Part shown: in pieces, positions 26,826 through 45,254 of the stretch
How positions within the stretch are numbered: position 1 is the stretch's first letter
How the letters are laid out: each line of letters starts with the position of its first letter
From: Candidatus Minusculum obligatum
Lineage (GTDB): Bacteria; Patescibacteriota; Minisyncoccia; Phycocordibacterales; Phycocordibacteraceae
Assembly: GCA_045401155.1 (NCBI GenBank)
Contig: CP174360.1
Location: 310,769-374,768, forward strand
Reading direction: 5' to 3'
DNA length: 64,000 nt
Notes under the pieces: model-generated
The model's database searches: none
The model's input: the letters and a program-made list of their open reading frames with translations, nothing else
What the model was told of the DNA's origin: nothing
Made by a program: the position numbers and the translations under genes

Positions 26826-26902
26826 TTTCTCTAGGATACCAAGGTTCGGAAATCCTCTACAGGGTATTAAAAAATAGCCCGTCAAATAAGGCTATTTTTG
26901 CT

Positions 26903-28313: not shown

Positions 28314-28359
28314 TAAAAAAAGTATAGCAAAACCTCCCAAAAGGAGGCCTGTACTGCCT

Positions 28360-29821: not shown

Positions 29822-29910
29822 TGTTATTGTATTAAAATTTAATAATTGTATGAATGGTAGACTAATTACAGTATATCACTAAGTCTATAGCTTAAATCTT
29901 GTTTTTTGGT

Positions 29911-30270
29911 GGACAAACGAGTGTCCTTTTTCTTCAAAACCCCCTGGGAAATCCTTGCAAATTTCCCCCTTCAGAATTTGGGAAATCTCCCAAAATCTGA
30001 ACTCTGTACTATCCGGCTCCGTATATATGATGAAATCCGAATGTATTTCAGACGGAGTCTGAAATGAACGGCGAGAGCCGGTGGTACATCAGACATACAC
30101 CTCCGCGAGGTGATCTCCACATACTTTCCGCACCGCACGACTCGCTCCGCTCGCCGTGCACAAATAGAATCCTTCTTTGCACTTTTATCCTTTCCCGCGC
30201 CCCCATTTTTTGGGAAACAAGGAGAAAGAAGTTTCTATTTGCCTTCTGCTTCGCAGAAGGGTGCTTGTAC
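29911..30270 (+). repeat. Intact X-core-Y unit, copy C (direct orientation)
   Basis: X has three hairpins (ggaca..tgtcc; gggaaat..atttccc; attttgg..ccaaaat). Core GGCTCCG is at 30015-30021. Y follows, with its palindrome at 30037-30071. Confidence 0.85.
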
Positions 30271-30390
30271 CTCCAGGTATGTGTCTACTTCCTCTAGAGA
30301 AGCAAAATGCACTTTCCAGAGCCTCTAGCGAGGCTTCCAAACGCTTCAATTACACCAATTGAAGCGTTTGAGGGGAAAGTGCGTTAGAAG

Positions 30391-30813
30391 CTAGATTTTA
30401 GTGTAAAAAACGGATTTTCCAGTGTTTCCAACTTGTTTTATCTTGTTTTGCTTCTCTAGGATATTGAAATAGCGGAATGCTGTTGTTCTTGAGATTCTGA
30501 GTAGTTTTTGTGCATCTTTGTTTGTTATTTGTTCTTGTGTGTCGAAAAGAGACATAATTTTGTCTAACTTCTTCTGTTTTCGTGTTTGGATTGCTGCGCG
30601 TGCTTTTGCAAGGAGTGTTTGTATGAAAGGTTGAGAAGGTTGTGTTGGTTGTGGAGTGGGTAGGGGAGTTTGGGTTGGTTCTTGTGTAGGTGTAGGTTCT
30701 TCAGTTTGAGGTTCAGATGCTTCTGGTGTTGTTTCAGATCCCTCTGGTTGTGGAGGGGTAGAGAGAACAGTTTCTTCAATTTGCAGTTCTTCTGTGAGAG
30801 GTTCTTCTTCCAT
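30391..30813 (-). CDS. Pro/Thr-rich protein with C-terminal winged-HTH (HTH_24-like)
   Basis: C-terminus ITNKDAQKLLRISRTTAFRYFNILEKQNKIKQVGNTGKSVFYTKI. Paralogous C-terminus in 31530..31811. Confidence 0.55.
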   Translation of the reverse strand: MEEEPLTEELQIEETVLSTPPQPEGSETTPEASEPQTEEPTPTQEPTQTPLPTPQPTQPSQPFIQTLLAKARAAIQTRKQKKLDKIMSLFDTQEQITNKDAQKLLRISRTTAFRYFNILEKQNKIKQVGNTGKSVFYTKI

Positions 30814-30814
30814 A

Positions 30815-31489
30815 TTAGATTTCTTTTATAAGTTTTTCAATAATATCTTCTTCTGGGTATCCTTCTACAAAACTAAAGCCTGTTCCAATTTCCCACAGAA
30901 ATGATGACAGCATTCTATTGTCACGTGCTGTTACTTCCATATTCTCAATAGAATAGATCATTCGCGAAAGACCAGAATATACATTATAAAGTCTTTCATC
31001 TTTTACTTCTAAAGTGTTAAATACAACGCTCATAAAATCCCTAAATACCAGAAGCTCAATAAGAATTTGTCTTACAAAAACTTCACCATCATCAGCTTCC
31101 ATTTTGTTTCTGACACGATCCCAGCGTGTTTCGCCAGTATTCAATTCTTCCTTAAAGAATCTACGAAAATTATCTCGCTTGGATGTTTCTTCAATCCTTT
31201 CTGCATTTATCAGTTCTTCTTGTGTTCCTAATAAGATGCGAGTTAAATCCTCCCTAAATTTCCCGTAGTGTTTTTTGAGATTTTTTCGAAGTGTTTGGCG
31301 GTGTCTTCTTTCCGGTTCTTTTCCAAGTTGATAAAAGGTGATGGCAATTAGAATGGAAACAATCAACTGTAATATCAAATCGGAATAGTTTATAAATAAA
31401 TAGGGCAGATCTTTAAAAAATATAAGCACGAGAGCGAGAAATAAAACATGTGCTGCGTACAAAAGGTTATTATCTTTTACAAGATTCAT
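30815..31489 (-). CDS. Membrane protein, partner of the wHTH protein
   Basis: Two TM helices and a cytoplasmic domain. 1-nt intergenic gap to the downstream gene. Confidence 0.5.
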   Translation of the reverse strand: MNLVKDNNLLYAAHVLFLALVLIFFKDLPYLFINYSDLILQLIVSILIAITFYQLGKEPERRHRQTLRKNLKKHYGKFREDLTRILLGTQEELINAERIEETSKRDNFRRFFKEELNTGETRWDRVRNKMEADDGEVFVRQILIELLVFRDFMSVVFNTLEVKDERLYNVYSGLSRMIYSIENMEVTARDNRMLSSFLWEIGTGFSFVEGYPEEDIIEKLIKEI

Positions 31490-31529
31490 TATAAAAACAG
31501 TATACCAAACGGCTCAATGCATTGAGCCG

Positions 31530-31811
31530 TTAAATTTTTTTGTAGTAAACGTGTTTTCCTGTTGTTCCTATCTGCTTTATTTCTCCTTCATTCTCTAATT
31601 CTTGGAGATATCTGGTTGCAGTTGCATCTGATACATTAAGAAGCTTTTCAATGTCATTGTTTTGTATTTTCTGGGCAGTTTTTAGGTGTTCAAGAATTTG
31701 CTCTTTTCTTTTTGTTTTCTGAGAGAGGGGGAGAGTGACTTGTCTTCGTGCAAGGTAAAAGCCGATAATTATTCCAGCAAATGCAATAAGAATAAAGGTA
31801 AGTATATTCAT
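31530..31811 (-). CDS. TM-anchored winged-HTH protein
   Basis: N-terminal TM helix. [34 protein letters not shown]. Confidence 0.55.
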
Positions 31812-31834
31812 TAGTTAGATTTTAGCACCTGTGC

Positions 31835-32812
31835 TCAAGTTCCAAGATCTTTTTTCGACTTTTTTGGGCAAGACCTTGAAAAATTACTTGTATGTATGTT
31901 TCCTGTTGATTCCTCCATGATAGTCATCTTAAACATTTTCTTTTCTTTGTTTAGATCTCCCCAAGGTATTTTGTCTTCTACTGTTTGAACAAGGACTCCT
32001 CTCAGTCCGCCAGGAAATTTTTCTTTAGACGCGACTTCTCCAAGAAGGAAAATAATAATTTCTCTTGAAAAGTAGAAAAACTTTATGGGATAAAATTTAA
32101 AAGCATCAGCAGCATTTTTCTTAAGAATAAGTGGGAAATAAGGTATCAATTTTTCAAATTTATTAGTGTGATATTCAATCGAATCTATTTTAAAGATTCC
32201 ATGTTCAACATCATTTCTTGCTTTTACAAATTCAGTTAACCACTCTTTTTTATTTTTTTGTATGAACTCCTCTAGTCTTCGCGCTTCATTTTTATCTGTA
32301 AATTTTGAAGAAAGGTTGCTCAACTTAGTTTCAAACTTTTTATGATCGTCTTTTCCAAAAAGAAACTCTATATTAAATCCTAAGTCACGAGAAAGTTTAC
32401 AAAGTGCATCTTTAACAATATCTCCATCTACAAATAAGTGCCTTGTATAGAAAGAGCAAATATGATCAAAATCCTTTACTTGCCACGTGTTGTTATTTTT
32501 TGTTACTCCAATACCCTCCTTCAGGTCGAATGTGTGTTTTTTGTAATCTTCCATGGCTCGTTCAGAGAGGGAAAATAGATCAAGTAATGATTCGTATAAT
32601 TTATTAAGATTCTCTGTCTCAATACATAAGTTTTGTAGTATTCCATTTATTTCAAAAAGGAAAGTGGTATGTATATCGTTAAAATTTCTTGGCGCCTCCT
32701 TAATCAAAGGTCCTTTTCTTGGGTACGGCTTACAGCAATTTTTAAATTTCACTCCACTGCCACACGGACATTTCGAATTAATTGTGAATCTATTTTCTTT
32801 TTTGGAAGCCAT
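31835..32812 (-). CDS. SEC-C motif (CPCGSGxKFKNCC) domain protein
   Basis: N-terminal SecA-C-terminal-like zinc motif CPCGSGVKFKNCC. Remainder unrecognised. Confidence 0.5.
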   Translation of the reverse strand: MASKKENRFTINSKCPCGSGVKFKNCCKPYPRKGPLIKEAPRNFNDIHTTFLFEINGILQNLCIETENLNKLYESLLDLFSLSERAMEDYKKHTFDLKEGIGVTKNNNTWQVKDFDHICSFYTRHLFVDGDIVKDALCKLSRDLGFNIEFLFGKDDHKKFETKLSNLSSKFTDKNEARRLEEFIQKNKKEWLTEFVKARNDVEHGIFKIDSIEYHTNKFEKLIPYFPLILKKNAADAFKFYPIKFFYFSREIIIFLLGEVASKEKFPGGLRGVLVQTVEDKIPWGDLNKEKKMFKMTIMEESTGNIHTSNFSRSCPKKSKKDLGT

Positions 32813-32884
32813 TATTCGTGTGTCACGTTTTAAATTCTCTGCTGTCTACCACATCTGTTTTTTGGTCTATTTTATTGAATGTTT

Positions 32885-33271
32885 CTAAGCAAGGGCATCA
32901 ATGCTTTGTTTGAGTTGTTTTTCTACATCTTGAGCAACATCTTTAAGTATATCTGATTCAACCATACTCATTGCGGCAGAAGGAAGGATAGAAGAAACAT
33001 ATGTATTCTTGTTTTGTTCGTACACAATCACATTACAAGGAAGAAGGAGTCCTATTTCTTTTTCTGCTGAGAGTGCTTTGTGCGCAAATGCAGGATTACA
33101 CGCGCCAAGAATTGTGTAGCGATCATAATCAACACCAATTTTTTCTTTCATGGTTTTTTGTACATCAATAGTTGTAAGTACTCCAAAACCATTATCAGCA
33201 AGTGATTTTTTCACAGCACCAATTGCCTCATCAAAAGGAAGGGACGTCTTTACGGTGTGACTGTATTTCAT
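32885..33271 (-). CDS. DUF302-family protein
   Basis: GLLLPCNVIVYEQ motif. Confidence 0.6.
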   Translation of the reverse strand: MKYSHTVKTSLPFDEAIGAVKKSLADNGFGVLTTIDVQKTMKEKIGVDYDRYTILGACNPAFAHKALSAEKEIGLLLPCNVIVYEQNKNTYVSSILPSAAMSMVESDILKDVAQDVEKQLKQSIDALA

Positions 33272-33507
33272 GCAAGTTTATTGTATGTCACTGCAAATAG
33301 ATAGAAAGCAATAAATGACATAACTGCAGCCTCAATCATTCCTGTTAGTGTTCCAATAACAGTGGGGGAATAGAAGAGGTGCATTTCTTGCATTGCTGAA
33401 ACGGCAATCGTATAAATTCCTAGAGAGTTAAAGATGGTTAGAATGAGCATAATAAGTGCAGAAACAATTCCTGCTGCATACCCAAGTGCTTTTGCGTGTA
33501 ATTTCAT
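33268..33507 (-). CDS. Small membrane protein
   Basis: 79 aa, 2-3 TM helices, 4-bp overlap with the DUF302 gene. Confidence 0.45.
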   Translation of the reverse strand: MKLHAKALGYAAGIVSALIMLILTIFNSLGIYTIAVSAMQEMHLFYSPTVIGTLTGMIEAAVMSFIAFYLFAVTYNKLA

Positions 33508-33552
33508 AGTAGAAAAAATTTACTTTAATAAAATAGGGGATAAAGAATTGAC

Positions 33553-33580
33553 GTATAGTACCCCCTAGGGGTATTATACC
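33553..33580. promoter_or_regulatory. Putative CsoR/RcnR-type operator within a TTGACG-N18-TATTAT promoter
   Basis: GTATAGTACCCCCTAGGGGTATTATAC: G/C tract flanked by an AT-rich inverted repeat, located in the divergent promoter region directly upstream of the csoR-like gene. Confidence 0.6.
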
Positions 33581-33585
33581 TGCTA

Positions 33586-33858
33586 ATGAAGAAAGATATC
33601 AAGAAGAGAGTTGTGCACAGGTTGAAAATCATCGAGGGGCAAGTAAAAGGTTTGCAAAGAATGGCAGAAGAAGAAGAGTATTGTATTAGCATCATTACTC
33701 AAGTTTCAGCAATGAGACAAGCACTTTCTTCTGTAGAAGACTTAATGCTTGAAAATCACTTACTTACACACGTGGTAAGCCAAATGAAGAGTGAGAAAGG
33801 TCAAAAGAAAGCAGTGGAGGAGATGTTGTCCATTTATAAACTTTCAAAGAAAAAGTAG
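33586..33858 (+). CDS. CsoR/RcnR/FrmR-family metal- or persulfide-sensing repressor
   Basis: DUF156 fold with YC at residues 32-33 and NHLLTH (His58, His62). Fingerprint is x-C-H-H. Confidence 0.7.
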   Translation: MKKDIKKRVVHRLKIIEGQVKGLQRMAEEEEYCISIITQVSAMRQALSSVEDLMLENHLLTHVVSQMKSEKGQKKAVEEMLSIYKLSKKK

Positions 33859-33862
33859 ATAT

Positions 33863-34690
33863 ATGAATGTAAAAATACTTGGAATTGGAGCTTTTGTCGC
33901 ATTACTCATTGCTGGCTTTGTGTTGGTGCAAGGTGGTGTTCCAGAATCTAAAATGGTTGAAGAGCATAGTGATTCTCTAGAATCATACGAAATGAGTCCT
34001 TCACAAGCTGTTAGCCGAATGCAAAGCAAAGATGATGTTGTGGTTCTTGATGTTCGAACAATTCAAGAATATGAAGAAATTCACCTTCAAAATGCTCTCT
34101 TGCTCCCCGTGCAGGAACTTTCTCAAGCTTCACTTGATGCGATTGGTCTTTCTGACAAAGATCAGGAAATAATTCTCTATTGCAGGAGTGGTGCTCGGAG
34201 TAAGACGGCTTTCGATATCATGAATTCTCTTGGGTATACAAACATAAAGAGTGTTGCAGGGGGAATGGTTCATTGGCAAGAAGATAATTACCCGCTTACA
34301 GAGGTGGGAAAGTTCAATGAATCAAAGAATATTCAGGAAAGTGAGGAAAATACAACAGGTCCAAAGATAAGTATCGATCGTAAATTACATGATTTTGGAG
34401 AGATTCCTCAATTTGCAGGTGTAGTACAGACAATGTTTACCGTTACAAATTTGGGGACAGAAACTCTTATTGTTGGCGATATTACAACCAGTTGTAGCTG
34501 TACGTCAGCAACACTGTCTTCATATTCTATTGGGGCAGGAGAGAGCGCTGAACTTACCGTTCTCTTTGATCCTGATTTACATGAAGAGCCAGAGGGTGTG
34601 TTTACGCGAACGGTATTTATCCCAAGTAATGACGTGAACACTCCAGAAGCAGAAGTTGCAGTACAAGTCGATATATTAGAAGGAGTTTAA
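33863..34690 (+). CDS. Membrane-anchored rhodanese-domain protein with C-terminal DUF1573 (SCxCT) domain
   Basis: TM helix. Rhodanese fold with active-site CRSGARS. C-terminal TSCSCTS motif. Confidence 0.65.
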   Translation: MNVKILGIGAFVALLIAGFVLVQGGVPESKMVEEHSDSLESYEMSPSQAVSRMQSKDDVVVLDVRTIQEYEEIHLQNALLLPVQELSQASLDAIGLSDKDQEIILYCRSGARSKTAFDIMNSLGYTNIKSVAGGMVHWQEDNYPLTEVGKFNESKNIQESEENTTGPKISIDRKLHDFGEIPQFAGVVQTMFTVTNLGTETLIVGDITTSCSCTSATLSSYSIGAGESAELTVLFDPDLHEEPEGVFTRTVFIPSNDVNTPEAEVAVQVDILEGV

Positions 34691-34701
34691 AATTAGATAA
34701 T

Positions 34702-35172
34702 ATGAACAATTACATTATAGGAGCACTAGTTATTGCAGGAGCACTTATTGCAGGAGCAATATTCTTTGTGGGTGGAGGTCCTGTTATAGAAAAGGTTGTG
34801 GCATCGGAGATTACTCTTGAGGCAAATGAGTATGATTTTGGCGATATTGACATTTTTGGTGGAAAGGTAAAAACAACTTTCCCTATCACAAATACTGGAA
34901 ATGCTGATGTGACAGTATTGTCTGGAGTTACAAGTTGTATCTGTACGGAAGGAGAAATAGATTCACTTTCCTTTGGTATGCATGGAAGTGATGGCGAGAC
35001 AGTAATACCGGCAGGAGAGACAAGGGAGTTGGTTGCAATATATGACCCATTAGCACACGGTCCTGATGGAGTTGGGAAAATAAAACGACAGTTGCAACTA
35101 AAAACAAATTCTTCAGTAACTGAGTACATCGATGTAAGTTTTACAGGAAATGTAGTAAAGAATGCTGAGTAA
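34702..35172 (+). CDS. DUF1573-domain protein
   Basis: TM anchor, TSCICTEGE motif. Confidence 0.55.
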   Translation: MNNYIIGALVIAGALIAGAIFFVGGGPVIEKVVASEITLEANEYDFGDIDIFGGKVKTTFPITNTGNADVTVLSGVTSCICTEGEIDSLSFGMHGSDGETVIPAGETRELVAIYDPLAHGPDGVGKIKRQLQLKTNSSVTEYIDVSFTGNVVKNAE

Positions 35173-35186
35173 CAAATAATATTCTC

Positions 35187-36140
35187 ATGGATAAAGTAAA
35201 AATAGCACTTGTAGGTATTGCATTCATTCTCTTGTCAATCATGCTTGTAGGAGGATTTAGTTTGCTAACTTCTCCTACTATGGTTCCAGGATTTTCTTTG
35301 GCATTTTTGGCAGGGATATCAATGATTGTGCTTCCGTGTACTTTTCCTCTTGTGTTTATCATTGTTCCTCTTGCGCTCTCAAAACAAAGCGTGAAAAAAG
35401 GAATCGTTATGGCGCTTCTTTTTGGTCTTGGTCTTACCGTTACATTTACGCTATATGGTCTAGCACTTGGATGGCTTGGTGGTTTTGTCGGATTGTACAA
35501 AGTTGTCAGTGCAATGCTTCTTATTGGGGGTATAGCAGCACTTTTCTTTGGATTGGCAGAGCTTGGCTTAGTAAACTTCTCTTTGCCATTTCGAAAAACT
35601 ATTCTTCCACAGTCGCTCCAGCAAAAGAATGACTACATACGGAGCTTCTTTCTAGGTTTCTTCTTGGGAAACGCCGGAGTTGGTTGCCCAAATCCAGCTT
35701 TCTATATTCTTTTTGGATATGTAGCTACACTTGGAGATCCTATTACTGGAGCATCTCTTGGAGCATTACATGGAATAGGGAGAATGGCTCCACTTCTATT
35801 TCTAGTAGTTCTTGCAATTCTTGGAATAAATATGATGGAAAAGGTGAGTACATATCAGGAAAGAGTGAAGCGCTGGGTTGCATGGTCGCTTGTCGTACTT
35901 GGGGCATTCATACTTAATTACGGACTTTTTGGCATGGCATGGTTTGAAAAATCAGGTATTCATGAAGCATGGAATCAGTTCCTTCTTGCGGTGGTTCCAA
36001 AAATTGCAGAGTCGGCAGAGCTTGAGTCAGCACTCCAGCTTCCACAAGGTGTTGGTGGTGTTATGCCTTGGATAGTTCTTGGTGCGGTTATAAGTGGAGT
36101 AATTGTATGGAGTGCAGTTAAGGCACGAAATAGTAAATAA
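35187..36140 (+). CDS. CcdA/DsbD-family thiol-disulfide transmembrane electron-transfer protein
   Basis: Conserved Cys in TM helices (LPCTFPLV and GVGCPNPAF). Confidence 0.65.
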   Translation: MDKVKIALVGIAFILLSIMLVGGFSLLTSPTMVPGFSLAFLAGISMIVLPCTFPLVFIIVPLALSKQSVKKGIVMALLFGLGLTVTFTLYGLALGWLGGFVGLYKVVSAMLLIGGIAALFFGLAELGLVNFSLPFRKTILPQSLQQKNDYIRSFFLGFFLGNAGVGCPNPAFYILFGYVATLGDPITGASLGALHGIGRMAPLLFLVVLAILGINMMEKVSTYQERVKRWVAWSLVVLGAFILNYGLFGMAWFEKSGIHEAWNQFLLAVVPKIAESAELESALQLPQGVGGVMPWIVLGAVISGVIVWSAVKARNSK

Positions 36141-36142
36141 TT

Positions 36143-36289
36143 ATGACTAACTTTATACAAATAGCATATGCACATGGAGGAGAGGAGGTTGAAACTGTAA
36201 CAACTCTTGATTTCTCAGGGCCACTTATTGCTCTGGGAATGATTGTCGCAGCAATTATTATTGCAAAAGTTATTTCTAAGAAAAAATAA
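36143..36289 (+). CDS. 48-aa small membrane protein (not in ORF track)
   Basis: MTNFIQIAYAHGGEEVETVTTLDFSGPLIALGMIVAAIIIAKVISKKK, tightly packed between ccdA-like and trx-like genes. Confidence 0.35.
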   Translation: MTNFIQIAYAHGGEEVETVTTLDFSGPLIALGMIVAAIIIAKVISKKK

Positions 36290-36290
36290 C

Positions 36291-36548
36291 ATGATTAAAG
36301 TAACGCTTGTTCGTCCAGAAGGGTGTCATCATTGTAAGGAGGTTAAAAATACGCTTGAGGGAATGAGAGATGAATTTCCTGATATTTCAATTGAAGAAAT
36401 TGATATGGTTACACCTGAAGGAAGGGAGCTTGTTCAAAAATATCGCATTCTATCAAGTCCGGGGATTTTAATTAATGATGAATTCTTTGCTTTTGGTGGC
36501 GCTACTGAGGAGCAGTTTAGAAAAAAGTTTAACGAAATTAATGGCTAG
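36291..36548 (+). CDS. Small thioredoxin/glutaredoxin-fold protein (CHHC active site)
   Basis: MIKVTLVRPEGCHHCKEVK. Start at ATG 36291 rather than ORF-track TTG 36243. Confidence 0.6.
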   Translation: MIKVTLVRPEGCHHCKEVKNTLEGMRDEFPDISIEEIDMVTPEGRELVQKYRILSSPGILINDEFFAFGGATEEQFRKKFNEING

Positions 36549-36562
36549 GCCCGATAAAGAAA

Positions 36563-37276
36563 ATGTTATTGGGAATTAAAAGTAAAAAAGTTGCACTCTT
36601 GCGCCACTTAGCAATGGCTATCGTTGGAGGACTGCTTGTATATTTGGTTTGGTCACTTAATGGTACGTGGAGTCCAGACATGCGATTGTGGAAAGCTTTT
36701 GGCGGAGCATCTTTTTTCCTCCTCTGGTTTGCTGTTGTTATTGGACCATTAGCGAAACTTCTTCCATCATTTAACTTAATGCTCGCATATCGTCGCGAGG
36801 CAGGAGTTTGGTTTTTTATCATCGCATTGGTGCATGGGTACCTCATTCTTGATGGCTGGGTGCGGTGGAATGTATGGGAATTTTTCGGCTATCAATACTT
36901 TACTGAAGTAGAGATGTATTTACGAGTTGAGCCTGGGTTTGGATTAGCAAGTTTACTTGGATTTGTTGCTCTCATGTTTGCTCTTGCGCTTGCTGCAACA
37001 TCTTTTGATTGGGCAGTTAATCTTCTAGGTATTACTTCTTGGAAATGGTTGCATATGTTTGCGTACGTTGTGTTTTATTTGGCAGCAATGCATGTTGTAT
37101 ATTTTGCTTTTATTCACTACACACCTTCGTTTAATAGGCTTGCAATGGGGCTTCCAACAGATTATCCAGATAACCCATTGAAATATTATTATCTCAACGC
37201 ACTTTTGAGTGTGTTTGTTTTGCAGACATCTGCTTTTATTGCAACGGTACGTAAAAATAAAAGAGCAAGCTGGTAG
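36563..37276 (+). CDS. Ferric-reductase-like transmembrane heme-binding component (MsrQ/YedZ-like)
   Basis: 6 TM helices with paired His (ALVHGY, AAMHVVYFAFIHY). Confidence 0.5.
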   Translation: MLLGIKSKKVALLRHLAMAIVGGLLVYLVWSLNGTWSPDMRLWKAFGGASFFLLWFAVVIGPLAKLLPSFNLMLAYRREAGVWFFIIALVHGYLILDGWVRWNVWEFFGYQYFTEVEMYLRVEPGFGLASLLGFVALMFALALAATSFDWAVNLLGITSWKWLHMFAYVVFYLAAMHVVYFAFIHYTPSFNRLAMGLPTDYPDNPLKYYYLNALLSVFVLQTSAFIATVRKNKRASW

Positions 37277-37279
37277 CGT

Positions 37280-37960
37280 ATGGTATTTGAAACAACAATT
37301 AAAGGACGTAAAAAAGTTGCAAAAGGTACTTGCGAAATAACTTTCAAAAGACCCGAGAAATTTGTATTTAAAGCAGGGCAATATATACAAATTGCCATAC
37401 CAGAATTACTCAAGTCAGATTTAAGGGGTAATTCACGACTATTCTCTGTCACTTCATCTCCGGATGATATAGAAAATATCCGCGTAGTTTTTAGAGTCTC
37501 TAATAGTGGGTTTAAACAAACACTGGTAAGCATGCCAGTTGGTGCAACGGTACATATTGAACAGGCTGCTGGAAGTTTTGTTTTACCGCAATCACCAAAA
37601 CAGCAACAAATTTTTGTTGCTGGCGGTGTTGGCATCTCTCCATTTATGAGTTACTTCAATCAAAAGAACACTCCATTTGAGAATGGACAGATCATTCTTT
37701 TTTATGGAAATCAAAACGAAGAAAGTGCCGCATACATTGCTGAGCTTCGCTCTTTTGCAAAGAGGTATCAATCTTTTTCACTACAAGAGCTGTATGAAAG
37801 ACCTTCCTCTGAATTCTTTAGGAGAAATGCGCAAATGTATAAAAATGCCGCATGGTGGGTGGTTGGGCCACCGGCAATGGTTGGAGTTGTTGTAAACGGA
37901 CTTCAATTAGGAGGTGTGGACCAAAATAATATTATAACTGAACCCTTTGAAGGATATTAG
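37280..37960 (+). CDS. FNR-like FAD/NAD(P)H oxidoreductase domain protein
   Basis: RLFSVTS (RxYS FAD motif), GGVGISPF (NAD motif). Confidence 0.6.
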   Translation: MVFETTIKGRKKVAKGTCEITFKRPEKFVFKAGQYIQIAIPELLKSDLRGNSRLFSVTSSPDDIENIRVVFRVSNSGFKQTLVSMPVGATVHIEQAAGSFVLPQSPKQQQIFVAGGVGISPFMSYFNQKNTPFENGQIILFYGNQNEESAAYIAELRSFAKRYQSFSLQELYERPSSEFFRRNAQMYKNAAWWVVGPPAMVGVVVNGLQLGGVDQNNIITEPFEGY

Positions 37961-37964
37961 ATAT

Positions 37965-38735
37965 ATGAAAAATACTTTAGGATTAATTGTTTTTATTCTC
38001 GTGCTTGTTGCACTAACTGCAATATTTTTTCTGAATGGCAGAAATACAGAAGTAACACCCGATGAAACATTTTCTATATCTGCTCAGGATATCAAAGACC
38101 AAATTACCATTGATCGTGTTGTTATGGACCAGCCAGGATTTATTGTGGCACGAGAAATTATAGATGGAAAACCGGGGCAGATAGTGGAAGTAAGTAAGTA
38201 TTTAAAGGTGGGTGAAAATGTTGATGTTGTTATAGGTCTTGCACAACCATTAATTGAGGGGGTTGGTGTGAGCAGTGATCAATTTGATCAAGAAATTGTT
38301 GTTGCTGTGTATTATGATGATGGAGATAAGGGGTTTAATCCGTCTCTTGATTCTCTTGCGTATCGTGCAGGAGAAGTGCTCGCACGGTTTGTCAAAACAG
38401 GAATAATGGCGCCTGAGTCAGCAGTGGTGCCAAACACTAAGGGTGAAAATATTGATGTTGCTCAAATAGTTACCTATACAGACAGTGGGTTTATTCCTCG
38501 GAACAGTGAAATTTCTCCTGGTGATACTGTTCGATTTATTAATAAGAGCAGTAATCAAATGTGGGTTGCTTCAAATGGGCACCCAGCGCATATGATACTT
38601 CCAACATTTGATCAGTTCAGTGCTTCTTCATATGGTGAAAGTTATGAATACACTTTTGAAAAAGAGGGGGTGTGGGAGTATCACGATCACATAAATGCTA
38701 GCCAGGTTGGTGTCATATTAGTTCATTCAAATTAA
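37965..38735 (+). CDS. Secreted hypothetical protein with C-terminal cupredoxin-like beta domain
   Basis: TM/signal N-terminus. C-terminal His residues (NGHPAH, YHDH), no Cys. Confidence 0.45.
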   Translation: MKNTLGLIVFILVLVALTAIFFLNGRNTEVTPDETFSISAQDIKDQITIDRVVMDQPGFIVAREIIDGKPGQIVEVSKYLKVGENVDVVIGLAQPLIEGVGVSSDQFDQEIVVAVYYDDGDKGFNPSLDSLAYRAGEVLARFVKTGIMAPESAVVPNTKGENIDVAQIVTYTDSGFIPRNSEISPGDTVRFINKSSNQMWVASNGHPAHMILPTFDQFSASSYGESYEYTFEKEGVWEYHDHINASQVGVILVHSN

Positions 38736-38740
38736 ATTAC

Positions 38741-39211
38741 ATGCAAAATACAATAAATATTTGGGGAGTGTCTGCCATTATTGGCATAACTATTCTATTG
38801 ATTGGTGGCGTCGCGCTATTGCCAAAATCTCCTGCGGGAGGGGGAGACGCTGTTGCTGCGGGACTCCATTGGCATCCCGAATTACAAATTTTTGTTGATG
38901 GAGAGAAGCAGCAAATTCCAGCAAATATAGGACTTGGTGGTGGCGGACATCAGCCAATACATACGCATACAGAAGACGTTGGGCAAGGAGTTCTTCACTT
39001 TGAATTTGGAGGAGTTGCCTATACAGGAGATCTCCGTTTGGGAAACTTCTTCCGTATTTGGGGAAATAAAGATATACAAACAGCGTTTGGCGTACTTGAA
39101 CAAATGATAGTAAATGGAGAAGAAAGCAGTGAATTTGGAGAATATGTTGTGCAAAGTGAAGACAAAATAGAGCTCCACTACAAGACTTTATTGCAGGGAG
39201 AGGTTATGTAG
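38741..39211 (+). CDS. His-rich putative metal-binding secreted protein
   Basis: TM anchor. LHWHPELQIFVDGEKQQIP, HQPIHTHTED, LHFEF. Confidence 0.45.
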   Translation: MQNTINIWGVSAIIGITILLIGGVALLPKSPAGGGDAVAAGLHWHPELQIFVDGEKQQIPANIGLGGGGHQPIHTHTEDVGQGVLHFEFGGVAYTGDLRLGNFFRIWGNKDIQTAFGVLEQMIVNGEESSEFGEYVVQSEDKIELHYKTLLQGEVM

Positions 39212-39254
39212 GCATGTTACTATTACTTAAATAAAAAAATAAAATATTGTTACT

Positions 39255-39980
39255 ATGGAAGAAAAAAAGAAAGAAGGGATGAATTTGGCAGTTCCGGGTG
39301 CGATTATGTTTGCTGGAATACTTATCGCTGGTGCACTAGTGTTCTCTTCACTGCAAAGCAGTGGGGGACAGCAAGTAGCTGAAGAGGCTCCACAAGACGC
39401 AGGGTCTCTTGACGCAATGGATCCAGTGTCAGAAAAAGATCACGTTCGAGGGAATCCAAATGCTCCAGTTATGATTGTTGAGTATTCAGACTATGAATGT
39501 CCTTTCTGTAAGCGCTTCCATGAGACCCTGAACCAGGTTATGGATACATATGGTGCTGAAGGAAAAGTTGCGTGGGTATATCGGCACTTTCCTCTTGACC
39601 AACTCCATCCAGTAAAAGCTCGGCAAGAAGCCGCAGCAGCAGAATGTGTTGCTGAAATTGGTGGAGATGACATGTTTTGGAGGTTCTCAGATAGATTCTT
39701 TGAACTTACGCCATCTAACAATCAAACCGACCTCACTGTGGTTCTTCCACAAATTTATTCTGAGTTAGGTCTTTCGCAGGCAAAGGTGGATGAGTGTGTT
39801 GCAAGTGGAAGGTATGATGATCATATTCAAGCTGAGTTTGAAAATGCTGTGGCAACTGGAGGTCGTGGTACGCCGTGGAGTATTCTGATAGCTGCAGACG
39901 GTACAAAGTACCCACTCTCTGGCGCACAACCTCTTAGTGCTATAAATCAGCTTATTGAACTTGGATTAGGAAACAACTAG
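39255..39980 (+). CDS. DsbA-like thiol:disulfide oxidoreductase, paralog 3
   Basis: TM anchor, CPFC, same architecture as the other two paralogs. Confidence 0.8.
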   Translation: MEEKKKEGMNLAVPGAIMFAGILIAGALVFSSLQSSGGQQVAEEAPQDAGSLDAMDPVSEKDHVRGNPNAPVMIVEYSDYECPFCKRFHETLNQVMDTYGAEGKVAWVYRHFPLDQLHPVKARQEAAAAECVAEIGGDDMFWRFSDRFFELTPSNNQTDLTVVLPQIYSELGLSQAKVDECVASGRYDDHIQAEFENAVATGGRGTPWSILIAADGTKYPLSGAQPLSAINQLIELGLGNN

Positions 39981-39984
39981 TCTT

Positions 39985-40506
39985 ATGGAGAAGCAAAGAA
40001 TATTCGCATATATTCTTATTGGAGCCATCATTTCTTTCATTGTTTTTTCTCTTGCTGTATTTCTTCCAAACCTTACTCTTGTATGGACGATAGCAAATTC
40101 TCCTGCTTTGTTAGGTGAAAAATTTGCACTGCTTGTGAGTTTATATGGTGCTATTGGAACAAACTTTACATTTCTTGCAGCGGGGTACACCATTTTGATG
40201 TCTCTCTTGTTTGGCTTAAATGTCGCACTGCTGATTTATCTTGTGCGTAGCAGGAGTGTTGGTGCTGTTGGTAAAAATGCCGCAGTTAGTATAGGGGGTC
40301 TTATAAGTGGAATACTGGGTGTTGGGTGTGCTGCTTGCGGCACATTTATTCTCTCAGCAATGCTTGGGCTTGTGGGTGCAGCGGGACTACTCGCGCTATT
40401 GCCACTTGGTGGAGAAGAGTTTGGAATAGTGGGAGTTATTTTGCTTGCCTATACAACATATGCACTGATCAAAAAAATTCGTGAACCAAATGTTTGCAGT
40501 GTTTAG
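39985..40506 (+). CDS. Membrane protein with intramembrane CAAC motif
   Basis: 4 TM helices, GVGCAACGTF in TM3. Possible DsbB/VKOR-analogous role is speculative. Confidence 0.45.
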   Translation: MEKQRIFAYILIGAIISFIVFSLAVFLPNLTLVWTIANSPALLGEKFALLVSLYGAIGTNFTFLAAGYTILMSLLFGLNVALLIYLVRSRSVGAVGKNAAVSIGGLISGILGVGCAACGTFILSAMLGLVGAAGLLALLPLGGEEFGIVGVILLAYTTYALIKKIREPNVCSV

Positions 40507-40515
40507 ATAATTAGT

Positions 40516-41001
40516 ATGGATATACTCATTATATTTCTTGGAAGCTATTTGCATTTCTTCATTATTGCAACAGCTTTATTAAGTGTTATTTTTGCATCTT
40601 CAAAAATACGTCTAGAATACATCTCTTTCTTAATTTTTGTTGGGCTGCTTGCTTATTTGTTAGGAGAGTTAGTTGGTATGGTTGTATATAATCCGCGACC
40701 TTTTGTTGTCTTGGATGTTGTTCCACTTATTCCTCATGATCCAACGAACGGATTTCCTTCTACGCATGCACTTGTTTCTATAAGCATTGCTTTTGCTGTG
40801 TTTATCTTTAACAAGAAACTTGGATTTATACTTTTCTTGTTTGGAATACTTGTTGGTGTTGGTCGTATTTTTGCTCAAATACACAGTGTTGAAGATGTTC
40901 TTGGGAGCATTGTTGTGTCGCTTGTAGCAGTATGTGCGGGGCTATTTGTTAAAAAGGTTTTTAGAAAACTCAAGGAGCAGAAGATTCTCATGAAATTTTA
41001 A
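40516..41001 (+). CDS. PAP2-superfamily phosphatase
   Basis: PAP2 motifs RPF, PSTH, GRIFAQIHSVEDV. Confidence 0.7.
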   Translation: MDILIIFLGSYLHFFIIATALLSVIFASSKIRLEYISFLIFVGLLAYLLGELVGMVVYNPRPFVVLDVVPLIPHDPTNGFPSTHALVSISIAFAVFIFNKKLGFILFLFGILVGVGRIFAQIHSVEDVLGSIVVSLVAVCAGLFVKKVFRKLKEQKILMKF

Positions 41002-41034
41002 TCTCTCTATGTAGAAATAGTGCAGTATAATATT

Positions 41035-41058
41035 AACGGCTCAGGCGGGTGAGCCGTT
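41035..41058. terminator. Terminator hairpin
   Basis: aacggctca-ggcggg-tgagccgtt. Confidence 0.6.
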
Positions 41059-41074
41059 TGGGAGAAAAAATCGC

Positions 41075-41392
41075 GCACAAATAGAAGTCCGTCATTTGCC
41101 CTTTCCCAAAAAATGGGGGCGCGGGAAAGGATAAAAGTGCAAAGAAGGATTCTATTTGTGCACGGCGAGCGGAGCGAGTCGTGCGGTGCGGAAAGTATGT
41201 GGAGATCACCTCGCGGAGGTGTATGTCTGATGTACCACCGGCTCTCGCCGTTCATTTCAGACTCCGTCTGAAATACATTCGGATTTCATCATATATACGG
41301 AGCCGGATAGTACAGAGTTCAGATTTTGGGAGATTTCCAAAATTCTGAAGGGGGAAATTCGCAAGGATTTCCCAGGGGGTTTTGAAGGAAGC
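41075..41392 (-). repeat. Y-core-X unit, copy D (inverted relative to copy C)
   Basis: Reverse complement matches Y over about 205 bp (palindrome at 41248-41282), core at 41298-41304, and X over about 90 bp. Confidence 0.85.
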
Positions 41393-41410
41393 AATATAGA
41401 CCAAAAGCTT

Positions 41411-42904
41411 ATGAGATTCTTTTTATACATACGCAAATCAACCGATGAGGATGATAGGCAGATATTGTCGCTTGAAGCGCAAGAATTTGAATTGAAGCAG
41501 TTGGCTTCGCAAGAGCAAATAGAGATAGTAGAGGTGTTTCGAGAGTCACAGACTGCAAAAGAACCAGGGCGGAAAGTTTTTAATGAAATGCTCTTGCGAA
41601 TAGAGAATGGGGAAGTTGATGGAATTCTATCGTGGCATCCGGATAGATTGGCACGCAATAGTGTAGATGGCGGACGTATTATTTATTTAGTGGATGCGGG
41701 GAAGATACAATTCCTCAAATTCCCAACATTCTGGTTTGAGCCAACGCCTCAAGGCAAATTCATGCTGAACATTGCTTTTGGTCAGTCGAAATATTTTGTT
41801 GATAATCTTTCAGAGAATACTCGTCGTGGACTTCGTCAAAAATTGCGCCGTGGCGAATGGCCGGGACCAGCACCCATTGGCTATCTAAACGATAAGTTAG
41901 GTCACACTATTGTGCTGGATCCCGAGCGTGCGCCACTTCTGCAGAAGTTGTTTGAGAAATATGCAGAGGGGAATTATTCTCTGAAAGATTTACAAAATAT
42001 TGCAAAGTCTATTGGCTTGTTTAGTAGGGGAGGAAAGGTGTTATCTGTTTCGCTTATTCAAAACATCCTCTCCAATCCTTTTTATTATGGAGTTATGAGA
42101 TATGGAGGAGAATTGTATGAAGCAAAACACGAGCCTTTGATTTCTAAGAAACTGTTTGATTCCATTCAGAAGATAATGGCTAGCAAGTCGAGACCTCGCA
42201 AACATGGAGAGGTAGAGTATCCACTGCGTGGATTATTTGAGTGTGGCGAGTGCTCGTGCGCCATTACTTCTGAAATGCAAAAAGGACATCATTATTATCG
42301 CTGCACGAAAAAGCGTGGCGCTTGCTCGCAAAAATATCTTCGAGAAGAGCTTTTGGTTGAGCAGGTTGATGATGTCCTTTCAAACGTTTCTATACCTGAT
42401 TCGTGGGCAGAGGAGATGCTCGTGAGATTGGATGAGGAGAAGGAGTCTGAGGAGAGAGAAACTTCTCTGTATGCTCAAAAATTAAGAGACGATATTGCAT
42501 CTTTTGATCTCAAGCTTGATGCACTTCTAGATACTTATTTAGAGAAAAGTATTTCAAAAGAGGAGTATCAGAGCAAAAAGCAAAAACTGTTAGATCAAAA
42601 GATAGATTTGCAGGAGAAATTAGACTCAATTTCGCATACAGGAAGTTTCTGGCTCGAACCGATGCGAAACTTAATTTTAGATAGTAAACAAGCCAAATAT
42701 ATTGCTTCACAAAAATCTCTCTTCGAGAAGAGAGATTTTTGCAAAAAGGTTGGCTCGAACCTTGTTTTAGTGGACAAACGAGTGTCCTTTTTCTTCAAAA
42801 CCCCCTGGGAAATCCTTGCGAATTTCCCCCTTCAGAATTTTGGAAATCTCCCAAAATCTGAACTCTGTACTATCCGGCTCCGCGGACAGGATTCGAACCT
42901 GTGA
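41411..42904 (+). CDS. Large serine recombinase (resolvase-domain integrase)
   Basis: N-terminal YIRKSTDEDDRQILSLEAQ with catalytic Ser. Recombinase domain, zinc ribbon CGECSCA...YYRC, coiled coil. ORF runs through repeat X and stops inside the tRNA 3' end. Confidence 0.85.
   Translation: MRFFLYIRKSTDEDDRQILSLEAQEFELKQLASQEQIEIVEVFRESQTAKEPGRKVFNEMLLRIENGEVDGILSWHPDRLARNSVDGGRIIYLVDAGKIQFLKFPTFWFEPTPQGKFMLNIAFGQSKYFVDNLSENTRRGLRQKLRRGEWPGPAPIGYLNDKLGHTIVLDPERAPLLQKLFEKYAEGNYSLKDLQNIAKSIGLFSRGGKVLSVSLIQNILSNPFYYGVMRYGGELYEAKHEPLISKKLFDSIQKIMASKSRPRKHGEVEYPLRGLFECGECSCAITSEMQKGHHYYRCTKKRGACSQKYLREELLVEQVDDVLSNVSIPDSWAEEMLVRLDEEKESEERETSLYAQKLRDDIASFDLKLDALLDTYLEKSISKEEYQSKKQKLLDQKIDLQEKLDSISHTGSFWLEPMRNLILDSKQAKYIASQKSLFEKRDFCKKVGSNLVLVDKRVSFFFKTPWEILANFPLQNFGNLPKSELCTIRLRGQDSNL
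42772..42890 (+). repeat. X repeat + core GGCTCCG, copy R, abutting the tRNA 3' end
   Basis: Identical to X in copy C. Inverted relative to X in copy D, so the recombinase gene is bracketed by roughly 100-bp inverted repeats. Confidence 0.85.
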
Positions 42905-43495
42905 CCTGCCGGTTACGCTTGATCCCACTATTTCTAGGGGTGCGGACTATATCATCACCCATCTTGCGATTAGGGTGGAAGGCGCTTCCCAAAGCTTTCG
43001 CTCCAGTACTCCCGTAAGGGATAGTCTCTGAACCTTCCTCGTGAGAGGCTTGGCTGCTGATTACCTGCAACATTACTTGCTAAGGCTTCCAGCAATTCAC
43101 CTTCTTTTCAACCTAAGTTTCCTTAGGAGGCTGCGTGGTGCCTGCGTGCAGTTCTGCGTGGCAATTTGCGCAAACAAGAATACATTTATCAAGTTCTTTT
43201 TGGATTTTCTCCCAAGAACGAGTTAGTCCTCTTGCTGATAATCCAAAATCTTTTTGCTTTGGATCTTTGTGATGAAAGGCAAGCGCTTGCTTACATTTTT
43301 TATATCCACAAATTTTGCATTTACCACCTCCGTATTCAAGAGCTTTGTTGCGAAGTTCCTTTCGTCGCTTTGCAACTGCCTTGCGGAGATATTCTGCACG
43401 GTCAGCGTATGTTCTTTTATCTGGCATACACATATGTAGTATACCAGAGGAACATGCGTTCACAGCCGGATGCTCTACCGCTGAGCTACCGCGGA
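42886..43495 (-). tRNA. tRNA (Asn-GUU if spliced by group I rules; His-GUG if co-linear) split by a ~538-nt anticodon-loop intron
   Basis: Exon 1 (43495..43462) is TCCGCGGTAGCTCAGCGGTAGAGCATCCGGCTGT. Exon 2 (42923..42886) is TAACCGGCAGGTCACAGGTTCGAATCCTGTCCGCGGAG. Acceptor stem is 7/7, D-arm and T-arm (GGTTCGAATCC) are canonical, discriminator is G. Confidence 0.75.
43113..43433 (-). CDS. Intron-encoded HNH homing endonuclease
   Basis: CKICGYKKCKQALAFHHKDPKQKD...CANCHAELH (HNH with two zinc knuckles). Lies wholly inside the tRNA intron. ORF-track N-terminal extension to 43571 rejected. Confidence 0.75.
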   Translation of the reverse strand: MCMPDKRTYADRAEYLRKAVAKRRKELRNKALEYGGGKCKICGYKKCKQALAFHHKDPKQKDFGLSARGLTRSWEKIQKELDKCILVCANCHAELHAGTTQPPKET

Positions 43496-43594: not shown

Positions 43595-43837
43595 ATGATG
43601 ACGCTTTACGTGAAAACAGGATGTCCATTTTGCAAGAAAGTACGAGACTGTGTTGCAGAGATGGGTATTCAAGACATGATTGAAGAGAAGAATGTTGCGG
43701 ATGATGGAGTTGTAGATGAGTTGATTGAAAAAGGAGGGAAGAAGCAGGTTCCATACCTTATTGATGCAGAGAAGGGTGTAGAGATGTATGAGTCAGATGA
43801 TATCTGTAATTATCTGAAGGAGAATTACGGAAACTAG
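43595..43837 (+). CDS. Glutaredoxin/NrdH-like redoxin
   Basis: TLYVKTGCPFCKKV active site. Confidence 0.75.
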   Translation: MMTLYVKTGCPFCKKVRDCVAEMGIQDMIEEKNVADDGVVDELIEKGGKKQVPYLIDAEKGVEMYESDDICNYLKENYGN

Positions 43838-44064: not shown

Positions 44065-44426
44065 ATATCTTATTTAAGGGAACAAATTACACTATTACTC
44101 CAGAGATTGAGTCTCTGTGTACCTCAAAGATTACTTCTGCAACAAGAATGCTTGGTGCAGATCAGGAAAAAGCCCTAACTGAGGTTGAGTTAGAGCTTGT
44201 GGAAGAGCGCAAAAACAACAACGCAGTATATCGGGCCGAGGTAAATGTCTCACTTGATGGAAAGTTGTATCGTGCAGAGAGTACTCGTCGTTCAATGCAA
44301 AATGCTATTAGCGACGTAAAGAAAGAGCTCTCAAATGAGATTCGAAGAGACAGGGGGAAGGACAAGTCTCTTATGAAGCAGGGAGGTCGCGCAGTGAAAT
44401 CATTCTTGCGGGGCTTCGGGCGGTAG
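44061..44426 (+). CDS. hpf: Ribosome hibernation promoting factor / RaiA
   Basis: Typical HPF fold sequence TPEIESLCTSKI...YRAEVNVSLDGKLYRAES. Confidence 0.8.
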   Translation: MNILFKGTNYTITPEIESLCTSKITSATRMLGADQEKALTEVELELVEERKNNNAVYRAEVNVSLDGKLYRAESTRRSMQNAISDVKKELSNEIRRDRGKDKSLMKQGGRAVKSFLRGFGR

Positions 44427-45254
44427 AGGAAGAGTAAGTTCGCGATAGCGAACTTCTTTTTTACCCTCAGGAGTAACTTTTGTTGGAAGAAACACGCCTT
44501 TGTAGAAGGTTGCGTCATTTATTTTTATTCGTGTCCCATCTTGTGCAAAGAAGAATGTTCCAGGCCATGGGTGATATGCGCAGAATTTTAGGAAGTTCTG
44601 ATATGCGTCATTTTTAAAATCAATTTCTCCATCCCCTTTCTTTATTTTTGAAGTAAATGTTGCCTGCTCATGATCTTGTTCTTCGGGGGTGACTTCTTCT
44701 TTTACGGTTTTTTGCATTGCCTCAGCAAGTAATTCTCCTCCAAAAGCTGCAAGTACTGTGGTAAGTTCATTTTTTCGTATTGGCCAGGCAGGAAGCTCCT
44801 TGATCTTTTGAAATACAATCGGTCCGTGATCAAGCTCTTCATCCATTTGCATGATCGTTACCCCAACCTTTTTTTCATCTTCTAGAATTTGTCCTTCGAT
44901 AGGAGAGGCTCCACGGTACTTTGGAAGCATTGAAGGGTGTACATTAAGCGTTCCATATTTTGGAAGTTCGATAAGCTCTTTTTTAAGAATCTTTCCATAT
45001 GCTGCAACAACAAACATGTCGAAGTTTTTTTGTAGCTCCTCTGGAATTTCTTTAAGAGATTCTGGTTGAATATATGGGATACCTTTTTCCTCTGCGTATA
45101 CCTTTACGGCAGGAGGCGTCATCTCCATACCGCGTCCAGCTTTTTTGTCTGGTGCAGTAACAATAAGGGAGGGGGCAAGTCCTCGCTCTTCAAGCTCCTC
45201 AAGGATTCGTACGGCAAATGGAGGAGTGCCAAAGTATGCAAAATTAACGCTCAT
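44400..45254 (-). CDS. fmt: Methionyl-tRNA formyltransferase
   Basis: FGTPPFAV, NVHPSMLPKYRGASPI. Confidence 0.85.
   Translation of the reverse strand: MSVNFAYFGTPPFAVRILEELEERGLAPSLIVTAPDKKAGRGMEMTPPAVKVYAEEKGIPYIQPESLKEIPEELQKNFDMFVVAAYGKILKKELIELPKYGTLNVHPSMLPKYRGASPIEGQILEDEKKVGVTIMQMDEELDHGPIVFQKIKELPAWPIRKNELTTVLAAFGGELLAEAMQKTVKEEVTPEEQDHEQATFTSKIKKGDGEIDFKNDAYQNFLKFCAYHPWPGTFFFAQDGTRIKINDATFYKGVFLPTKVTPEGKKEVRYRELTLPLPPEAPQE

Follow-up and report, generated by a model that had tools for sequence, protein, structure and literature searches.

The subject of this analysis is a split tRNA gene in a 64,000-nucleotide stretch of contig CP174360.1, here called the window. On its minus strand the window carries two halves of a tRNA gene, separated by intervening DNA that holds a complete open reading frame (ORF) for a small HNH endonuclease; on the plus strand, a large serine recombinase gene runs toward the tRNA from the other side. 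On the evidence set out below, we consider it very likely that the gene encodes tRNA-Asn(GUU) and is interrupted between anticodon nucleotides 35 and 36 (site 35/36) by a self-splicing group I intron of subgroup IA, which carries an HNH homing-endonuclease gene in the loop of its first helix, P1. A preliminary description of this DNA had placed the gene at 42886-43495, with an intron of about 538 nt. The two halves, the intervening DNA, and the minus-strand ORF are all there, and the upper end of that span is right, but the intron measures 546 nt and the lower bound misses the last 8 nt of the tRNA, which ends at 42878.

The 5′ exon reads, on the minus strand from 43495, TCCGCGG-TA-GCTC-AGCGGTA-GAGC-A-TCCGG-CTGT, and the 3′ exon, which starts TAACCGGC, reads from 42915 TAA-CCGGC-AGGTC-ACAGG-TTCGAAT-CCTGT-CCGCGGA-G; the halves sum to one complete tRNA with neither overlap nor gap. 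The 3′-terminal CCA is not encoded, G73 being followed by CCG. In its default mode, ARAGORN finds zero tRNA genes across the window; in intron mode it reports a single one, the split gene, and none in 20 shuffled windows (1.28 Mb). Joined as CTGT/TAA, the exons form a perfect cloverleaf that ARAGORN calls tRNA-Asn(GTT). An intron-less allele of this gene exists: in a metagenome contig (L098), tRNA-Asn(GTT) is uninterrupted and is identical to the spliced product at 72 of 72 nucleotides. In annotated E. coli genomes, the only full-length matches of the spliced product are tRNA-Asn genes (76.7% identity), and the split tRNA has the same U1-A72 pair and G73 as E. coli tRNA-Asn.

The rule that the exon ends in U and the intron ends in G permits two junctions in the window, namely, CUGU/...G/UAA, which gives Asn-GUU, and CU/...G/CGUAA, which gives Thr-CGU. 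For comparison, 13 loci were fetched via homologous proteins and 80 from species-representative genomes, and the set used for blastn comprised 98 loci. The junction CTGT/...G/TAA is possible in 83 of the 89 loci with a split tRNA and is the sole junction common to the homologs. Because the homolog junctions, the P1 pairing and the covariation at the splice site (both described below), the intron-less allele, and the annotated relatives all point the same way, we identify the split gene as tRNA-Asn(GUU) with its intron at site 35/36. The preliminary description had arrived at this isotype by applying group I splice rules. The tRNA-His that it also derived, from a co-linear reading, is obtained only via a shifted junction, violates the rule that a U precedes the intron, and does not fit the homologs.

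The intervening DNA has the fold of a group I ribozyme. The Rfam model Intron_gpI (RF00028) matches positions 43197-42924 of the minus strand with 71.6 bits against a gathering score of 50 (E = 3e-16) and matches all nine homologous loci tested with 65-80 bits. We examined the fold in an alignment (A3) of 53 distinct intron cores extending from the guide sequence to the 3′ exon. RNAalifold recovers P2, P4, P5, P6, P6a, P8, and P9, with compensatory changes in 30 of 35 pairs; P3, the P7 pseudoknot, P7.1, and the outer pairs of P7.2 were placed by hand on this model. Across the 53 sequences, standard pairs fill 92.7% of 2686 cells, compared to 33-46% once the 3′ partners have been slid 1-3 columns along the alignment, and changes on both sides of a pair are seen in 41 of 53 pairs. 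The covariation score is 0.541, compared to at most 0.11 for the slid partners, and none of 500 shuffles reaches the observed values. P7 (GACUA/UAGUC) and the terminal guanosine of the intron (omega-G) are invariant in all 53 sequences, as are AGAGACUA and AUAGUCC; being invariant, P7 provides no covariation information. Two further hairpins, P7.1 and P7.2, separate P7 from the 3′ strand of P3, an arrangement that is a hallmark of subgroup IA; depending on the pair, 10-16 of the 53 sequences are gapped in these helices. On account of these hairpins we regard the intron as IA-like, which agrees with the published classification of such introns (PMC13011429).

The 5′ splice site is defined by P1, in which the exon end GGCUGU and the first intron nucleotide (GGCUGU/G) pair with the internal guide sequence CGCAGCC, so that a U35.G wobble comes to lie at the splice site. 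The GCAG motif of the guide is invariant in 81 loci and sits just before a covarying hairpin with a GNRA cap (P2); it is found 5-27 nt past the splice site in ORF-less relatives and ~305-350 nt past it in ORF-containing introns. The pair beside the splice site, between intron position +1 and guide position IGS-1 (internal guide sequence -1), is G-C in 38, A-U in 13, C-G in 3, and G.U in 2 of 62 distinct contexts, and this covariation fixes the register of P1. Since the exon end pairs with a guide strand this far downstream, the HNH ORF lies in the P1 loop. Its end overlaps the ribozyme, with ACG CAG CCT serving both as codons for T-Q-P and as guide sequence and with the TAG stop (43115-43113) falling in the 3′ strand of P2 (Table 1). 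Two other arrangements of P1 were rejected. The Rfam alignment places P1 at 43197-43171, inside the ORF, where P2 is left empty, the real guide and P2 being at 43135-43112; and a longer exon part, pairing positions 30 and 31 with guide positions 5 and 6, does not covary, with C fixed opposite G, A, or C.

Table 1. Features of the split tRNA locus, in window coordinates
Feature	Position	Strand	Remarks
tRNA-Asn(GUU) 5′ exon	43495-43462	minus	acceptor 5′ strand, D-arm, anticodon stem 5′ strand, loop C32 U33 G34 U35
Group I intron	43461-42916	minus	546 nt; between anticodon nt 35 and 36; first nt G, last nt omega-G (42916)
tRNA-Asn 3′ exon	42915-42878	minus	U36 A37 A38, anticodon stem 3′ strand, variable loop, T-arm, acceptor 3′ strand, G73 (42878)
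P1 5′ strand	43467-43461	minus	exon GGCUGU + first intron nt G; U35 (43462) in U.G wobble
Extended -10-like box TGGTATACT	43446-43438	minus	10 nt upstream of ORF ATG; putative promoter
HNH endonuclease ORF	43427-43113	minus	104 aa, MPDKRTYADR...TQPPKET*; intact; in P1 loop
P1 3′ strand (internal guide sequence CGCAGCC)	43135-43129	minus	overlaps ORF codons T-Q-P
P2 hairpin CCUAAG-GAAA-CUUAGG	43127-43112	minus	6/6 pairs compensatory; 97.8% of cells paired
Core domain P3-P7.2	43104-42978	minus	alignment + RNAalifold/hand model
P3	43104-43098 with 42984-42978	minus	93% paired
P4	43094-43089 with 43060-43055	minus	99.7% paired
P5	43086-43083 with 43066-43063	minus	
P6 + P6a	43054-43032	minus	
J6/7 + P7 5′ strand	43031-43022	minus	
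P7.1	43021-43010	minus	4/4 pairs compensatory, 93.5% paired
P7.2	43006-42989	minus	outer 4/4 pairs compensatory, 76% paired
P8	42977-42956	minus	
P7 3′ strand UAGUC	42949-42945	minus	
P9	42940-42924	minus	
Intron end ...AAGCG	to omega-G 42916	minus	
Large serine recombinase gene	41411-42904	plus	497 aa; Pfam Resolvase, Recombinase, Zn_ribbon_recom
Glutaredoxin-like gene	43595-43837		
fmt	44400-45254		

The ORF was described from the outset as a complete HNH nuclease gene, and its conservation bears this out. Nine residues are invariant in 24 homologs—C37, C40, H52, H53, C86, N88, C89, H90, and H94, that is, two CxxC pairs and an HH...N...H pattern—and the window ORF has all of them, in keeping with the HNH (beta-beta-alpha-metal) motif and its catalytic His, Asn, and His and zinc-binding Cys pairs. 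HNH-endonuclease families of the PHROG collection match the 104-amino-acid protein down to E = 8e-29, and several homologs with 70-85% identity have a precomputed hit to the Pfam family HNH (PF01844). The weak top fold matches of the AlphaFold model are likewise nearly all HNH nucleases (Cap5, T4 endonuclease VII, the HNH domain of Cas9, and a Gme nickase). The family is large: there are 1803 homologous protein clusters at E <= 1e-3, of which the best 120 are 69-85% identical, and a scan of species-representative genomes returned at least 586 species genomes with a stretch that encodes an HNH relative. Among 65 distinct sequences, the median proportions of nonsynonymous (pN) and synonymous (pS) differences are 0.245 and 0.834, the latter saturated, with a dN/dS of ~0.1 where computable. 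By this measure, the ORF family is maintained under strong purifying selection and is not decaying.

An identical protein (100%), annotated as hypothetical, is known from Patescibacteria group bacterium UBA2103. The gene order around the intron, namely, fmt, S30AE, (PF1765-like), glutaredoxin, and split tRNA, is common to many loci, and the synteny of fmt, S30AE, glutaredoxin, and tRNA is shared with loci from Nomurabacteria, Kaiserbacteria, and Paceibacterota. Judged by the identity of the ORF and by this synteny, the host of the intron is a member of the Patescibacteria (candidate phyla radiation).

The fetched loci include nine in which the HNH gene lies outside the intron, beside a tRNA-Asn gene with an ORF-less intron. 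In the divergent form (L006/L007, which are one place recovered from two assemblies, L015, L022, and L025), the gene is found ~100 nt from the 5′ end of the tRNA-Asn, whose intron is 232-344 nt long. In the other form (L047, L069, L079, L085, and L088), gene and tRNA share a strand, with the gene directly upstream; it ends within the first nucleotides of the tRNA in L079 and L088 and 30-60 nt short of the tRNA in L047, L069, and L085. As each locus has one 5′ half and one 3′ half, the free-standing loci are not duplications. We tentatively propose that the HNH gene is a long-lived gene, maintained by selection, that moves between the P1 loop and a free-standing site beside the same intron-bearing tRNA, although we would not yet put this ahead of other histories. 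If true, the stages of "endonuclease invades intron," or those of collaborative homing, could be read in the Patescibacteria as a natural series within cellular genomes. All of them would involve one essential tRNA gene, present in a single copy, at whose 3′ end serine-recombinase elements repeatedly land as well. A free-standing endonuclease next to an ORF-less intron is reminiscent of trans homing in phages, as for F-CphI with psbA (PMC6083498) and mobE with I-TevIII (PMC2790892; reviewed in PMC3984707). Phage trans homing has experimental support, whereas the arrangement described here is known from cellular genome sequences alone, and the form present in the window is the intron-resident one.

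At their ends, the free-standing L047 and L085 proteins have ...GITKIP... in place of the ...GITQLP... of the intron-resident ones, in which the Q-L codons form the guide sequence. In several introns (L002, L004, L017, L020, L024, L030, L060, and others), the HNH frame runs past P2 into P3-P6 and encodes proteins of 118-145 amino acids, so that coding sequence and catalytic RNA overlap by 50-100 nt. The gene is also present in L036, L043, L049, L058, L061, L083, and L092, which are labelled Gammaproteobacteria, Heliobacteriaceae, Pyrinomonadaceae, Omnitrophica, Deltaproteobacteria, or Bdellovibrionales; all of these except L061 admit the tRNA-Asn 35/36 junction. Mis-binning or mislabelling of Patescibacteria contigs could explain these labels, as could transfer beyond the phylum. 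For six HNH-carrying loci (L019, L027, L034, L056, L061, and L073), the automatic parse gives no clean CTGT/...G/TAA and ARAGORN calls His, Leu, or Thr; these calls may be "ghost" exons of ARAGORN or other host tRNAs. In L033, the intron mode of ARAGORN yields a putative second split tRNA at 758-1124, Phe-GAA with a 271-nt intron, immediately 5′ of the split tRNA-Asn.

The intron-resident gene may be expressed from a promoter of its own. A TGnTAyAmT-like box is found in 49 of 83 distinct upstream regions, compared to 3.9% of control segments; its variants, TGGTATACT or TGCTATAAT, lie ~10 nt before the start codon at an equivalent position in L001-L093, and the free-standing gene copies retain the box. 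A consensus scan detected no -35 element, and no ribosome-binding site is visible. The conservation of the box suggests that the HNH gene probably has its own extended -10 promoter and is read from a near-leaderless message, with a leader that would be very short or absent.

Taken together, these features suggest the following course of events. The split gene would be transcribed as a precursor, in which the exon sequence GGCUGU and the intron G pair with CGCAGCC ~330 nt downstream and form P1, in which the wobble U35.G marks the splice site. The invariant P7 pocket would bind a free guanosine, which would then attack after U35; the terminal G (42916) would replace it, and ligation of the exons would restore the CUGUUAA loop. 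As no P10 pairing is evident, the anticodon stem would be what holds the exons together. The HNH protein, by analogy with other intron-borne HNH enzymes, would cut or nick intron-less tRNA-Asn genes, whose repair would copy in the intron together with its ORF (homing).

A competing identity for the tRNA is tRNA-Thr(CGU) with an intron at site 33/34. This is the call that ARAGORN makes in intron mode, Thr(cgt) i(33,546), and at the junction it implies, too, the exon ends in U and the intron in G. Applied to the syntenic orthologs, however, the same junction yields UGU, CGU, or AGU anticodons and lacks a terminal intron G in ~40 loci; it would also move the splice site two pairs inside P1, away from the U.G wobble. 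The exons, moreover, are those of the natural tRNA-Asn(GTT) gene of L098, the U1-A72 pair and G73 match E. coli tRNA-Asn, and the same miscall has been documented and the 35/36 junction of a homolog sequenced (PMC13011429), so that we regard the threonine assignment as effectively refuted. It is just as improbable that the tRNA is dead, with halves that are att-duplication leftovers of site-specific integration and an insert that is never spliced. The tRNA 3′ end is indeed an insertion hot spot adjoining a serine recombinase, and the window holds pseudo copies of tRNA 3′ ends, but the halves are no duplicates of each other and together make exactly one tRNA, the insert has a fully covarying group I fold, and arrangement and synteny are kept in dozens of species. 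There is no other tRNA-Asn in the 64-kb window, and a contiguous copy of the gene, which the preliminary description had tied to such remnants if found without group I structure in the insert, occurs only in another organism.

A different objection accepts splicing and concerns the protein, which may not be a homing enzyme, or not only one, and may instead serve the host or the intron, for example, as a splicing aid, in regulation, or in defense. The selection reported above is unusually strong and long-lasting for a selfish endonuclease, homologs remain 69-85% identical across many Patescibacteria lineages, and the gene persists free-standing beside ORF-less introns. Still, we consider such a role unlikely, given that all nuclease and zinc-binding residues are invariant, as expected of an active nuclease, that intron-less alleles exist as potential targets (L098), and that frequent cycles of re-invasion could equally maintain the ORF; to our knowledge, no maturase-type function is known for HNH intron proteins. 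Some observations do weigh against a self-splicing, homing intron in tRNA-Asn as we propose it. The window protein scores 19.8 bits with PF01844, just under the cut-off of 21.4; a PDB sequence search with it returned no relative beyond E = 0.011, and a Foldseek search with its AlphaFold model (predicted local distance difference test score, 82) returned no significant PDB match. Inspection by eye revealed no P10, the helix that would join the 3′ exon to the sequence 5′ of the guide. The search for a second tRNA-Asn, with none found, covered the 64-kb window of a contig of ~579 kb. Finally, we infer splicing in this organism from conservation and from a homolog that splices in vitro, and the activity of the HNH protein, with intron-less tRNA-Asn as its target, from analogy.

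The class to which this locus belongs is known from a recent study of 95 complete Patescibacteria genomes by Nakagawa, Amikura, Omae, and Suzuki (mSystems 2026, PMC13011429; preprint 10.1101/2025.07.03.662931, July 2025), who reported group I introns at site 35/36 in 15 tRNA-Asn(GUU) and 3 tRNA-Asp genes. These split genes are missed by standard tools, and ARAGORN and tFind miscall them as Thr(UGU) 33/34. For a tRNA-Asn 35/36 intron from GCA_016700035.1, self-splicing was demonstrated in vitro by sequencing of the ligated exons, with an omega-G mutant as control; subgroup-specific covariance models put nearly all tRNA introns of Patescibacteria into subgroup IA, and four tRNA-Asn introns contained HNH (PF01844) genes (all PMC13011429). 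According to Nakagawa et al., an "Asn.4Ug" class had already been listed by tFind (Williams 2020, 10.1101/2020.01.27.920355). The window locus resembles these introns in phylum, tRNA, insertion site, the rule of U before the intron and omega-G at its end, and the IA-type fold with P7.1, as well as in being missed by default finders and called Thr 33/34 by ARAGORN, in the HNH gene of the long versions, and in interrupting what is typically the sole gene copy (PMC13011429). It matches each testable defining feature of the published class, and because that class is already published, it adds an instance and not a concept. The main text of PMC13011429 does not name UBA2103, and a term search of this text found no mention of an internal guide, leaderless, free-standing, purifying, or recombinase, the sole promoter being the T7 promoter of the assay constructs. 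As far as such term searches show, an ORF in the P1 loop that overlaps guide and P2, the promoter-like box, the free-standing HNH copies, selection on the ORF, and recombinase elements at the tRNA 3′ end therefore appear to go beyond that main text.

Other known introns share single aspects of this organization. The cyanobacterial tRNA-fMet(CAU) intron with I-Ssp6803I (Bonocora and Shub 2001, as cited in PMC3984707 and PMC13011429) is also a group I intron in an anticodon loop, and its homing endonuclease is also aimed at the anticodon region of the intron-less gene, but it is inserted at site 33/34, its enzyme is of the PD-(D/E)XK and not the HNH type, and its hosts are Cyanobacteria. In the tRNA-Leu(UAA) introns of cyanobacteria and plastids and the tRNA-Ile intron of Azoarcus, the exons are likewise held by the anticodon stem; these introns differ in being of subgroup IC3, at sites 34/35 and 36/37, and usually without an ORF, whereas the window intron has P7.1/P7.2. 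HNH endonucleases such as I-HmuI and I-TevIII are found in IA introns of phages. The same combination of an IA ribozyme with an HNH enzyme, often a nicking one, is seen for I-PfoP3I of cyanophage Pf-WMP3 (PMC3428280), yet the phage introns reside in protein-coding genes and encode larger proteins with separate DNA-binding domains, whereas here a minimal HNH protein of 104 amino acids is encoded within a cellular tRNA gene.

For annotation, the practical consequence is that default finders miss this tRNA-Asn and an intron-aware tool declares it a tRNA-Thr, so that inferences on completeness and decoding for such metagenome-assembled genomes will be wrong unless the 35/36 junction is applied. 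That an apparently single-copy essential tRNA relies on ribozyme self-splicing in minimal genomes is already the main point of PMC13011429. What the present locus offers are modest, testable leads on the association between endonuclease and intron, in the form of the ORF overlap in the P1 loop, the widespread selected family, the free-standing copies, and the recurrent recombinase insertion; the series of free-standing versus intron-resident endonucleases and the recombinase hot spot seem most worth following.

The recombinase gene converges on the tRNA and reaches 27 nt into the tRNA 3′ end. It is the mark of a mobile element that has inserted beside the tRNA, and it belongs to the context, not to the intron. 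Of the 67 loci with enough downstream sequence, at least 15 have a homologous recombinase that converges on the tRNA end, and in another species two loci, L094 and L095, are 100% identical over 10,551 nt and diverge 3 nt past G73, with serine recombinases on the L095 side. These observations support the convergence of integrative elements on the tRNA-Asn 3′ end, as had been supposed in the preliminary description. In the window, two copies of a 118-nt repeat (29904-30021 and 42765-42882, 97% identical) bracket ~12.9 kb. Of the 118 nt, 111 are the 3′ coding end of the recombinase gene, whose C-terminal residues are conserved in L059 (the tblastn alignment of the recombinase to L059 also extends into the tRNA 3′ end of that locus), and the last 7 nt, CGGAGCC in tRNA sense, correspond to 3 nt of the acceptor stem, G73, and CC. 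Because the repeat is mostly recombinase coding sequence, an earlier, related element probably left the copy at 29904-30021 behind as a remnant.

Five further units at 25-30 kb end in CGGAGCC or CGGAGCA; two of them have a T-loop-like GGTTCGA before the 7-mer and terminator hairpins after it, and three close a 258-nt repeat. Two shikimate-kinase-like proteins and one with DUF5667 are encoded in the array, in which a Pfam scan detected no integrase or recombinase. The count of GGCTCCG is 7 versus 3.2 expected and, since 3 of 100 shuffles reach 7, is not significant alone. From these sequence features, a role of the tRNA 3′ end as att core of the cassette array, as first proposed, is plausible but only partly supported: the recombinase does abut the tRNA end, but the shared core amounts to 7 nt and the array is without a recombinase.

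A 67-nt repeat has three copies (25158-25224, 26233-26299, and 26864-26930), and two of them contain, on the minus strand, a T-loop-like GGTTCGAGCATCTCGCACCACA-CGGAGCC followed by a terminator-like hairpin. Because of the T-loop-like sequence before the 7-mer and the terminator hairpins after it, they look like decayed tRNA 3′ ends with a terminator, each lying just after a gene. The 258-nt units, read on the minus strand, are at 26892-27149, 28349-28606, and 30004-30261, are 97% and 67% identical to the reference copy, and each end in ...CATCATATATA-CGGAGCC, the same 7-mer as the tRNA end; they have no Rfam match, no common long ORF, and no blastn match in the 98 fetched loci. Between the copies of the 118-nt repeat, positions 30262-41400 encode a rhodanese with DUF1573 and DsbD-like membrane, ferric-reductase-like, and DsbA/thioredoxin-like proteins, and these genes for redox and disulfide handling are possibly cargo of the recombinase element.

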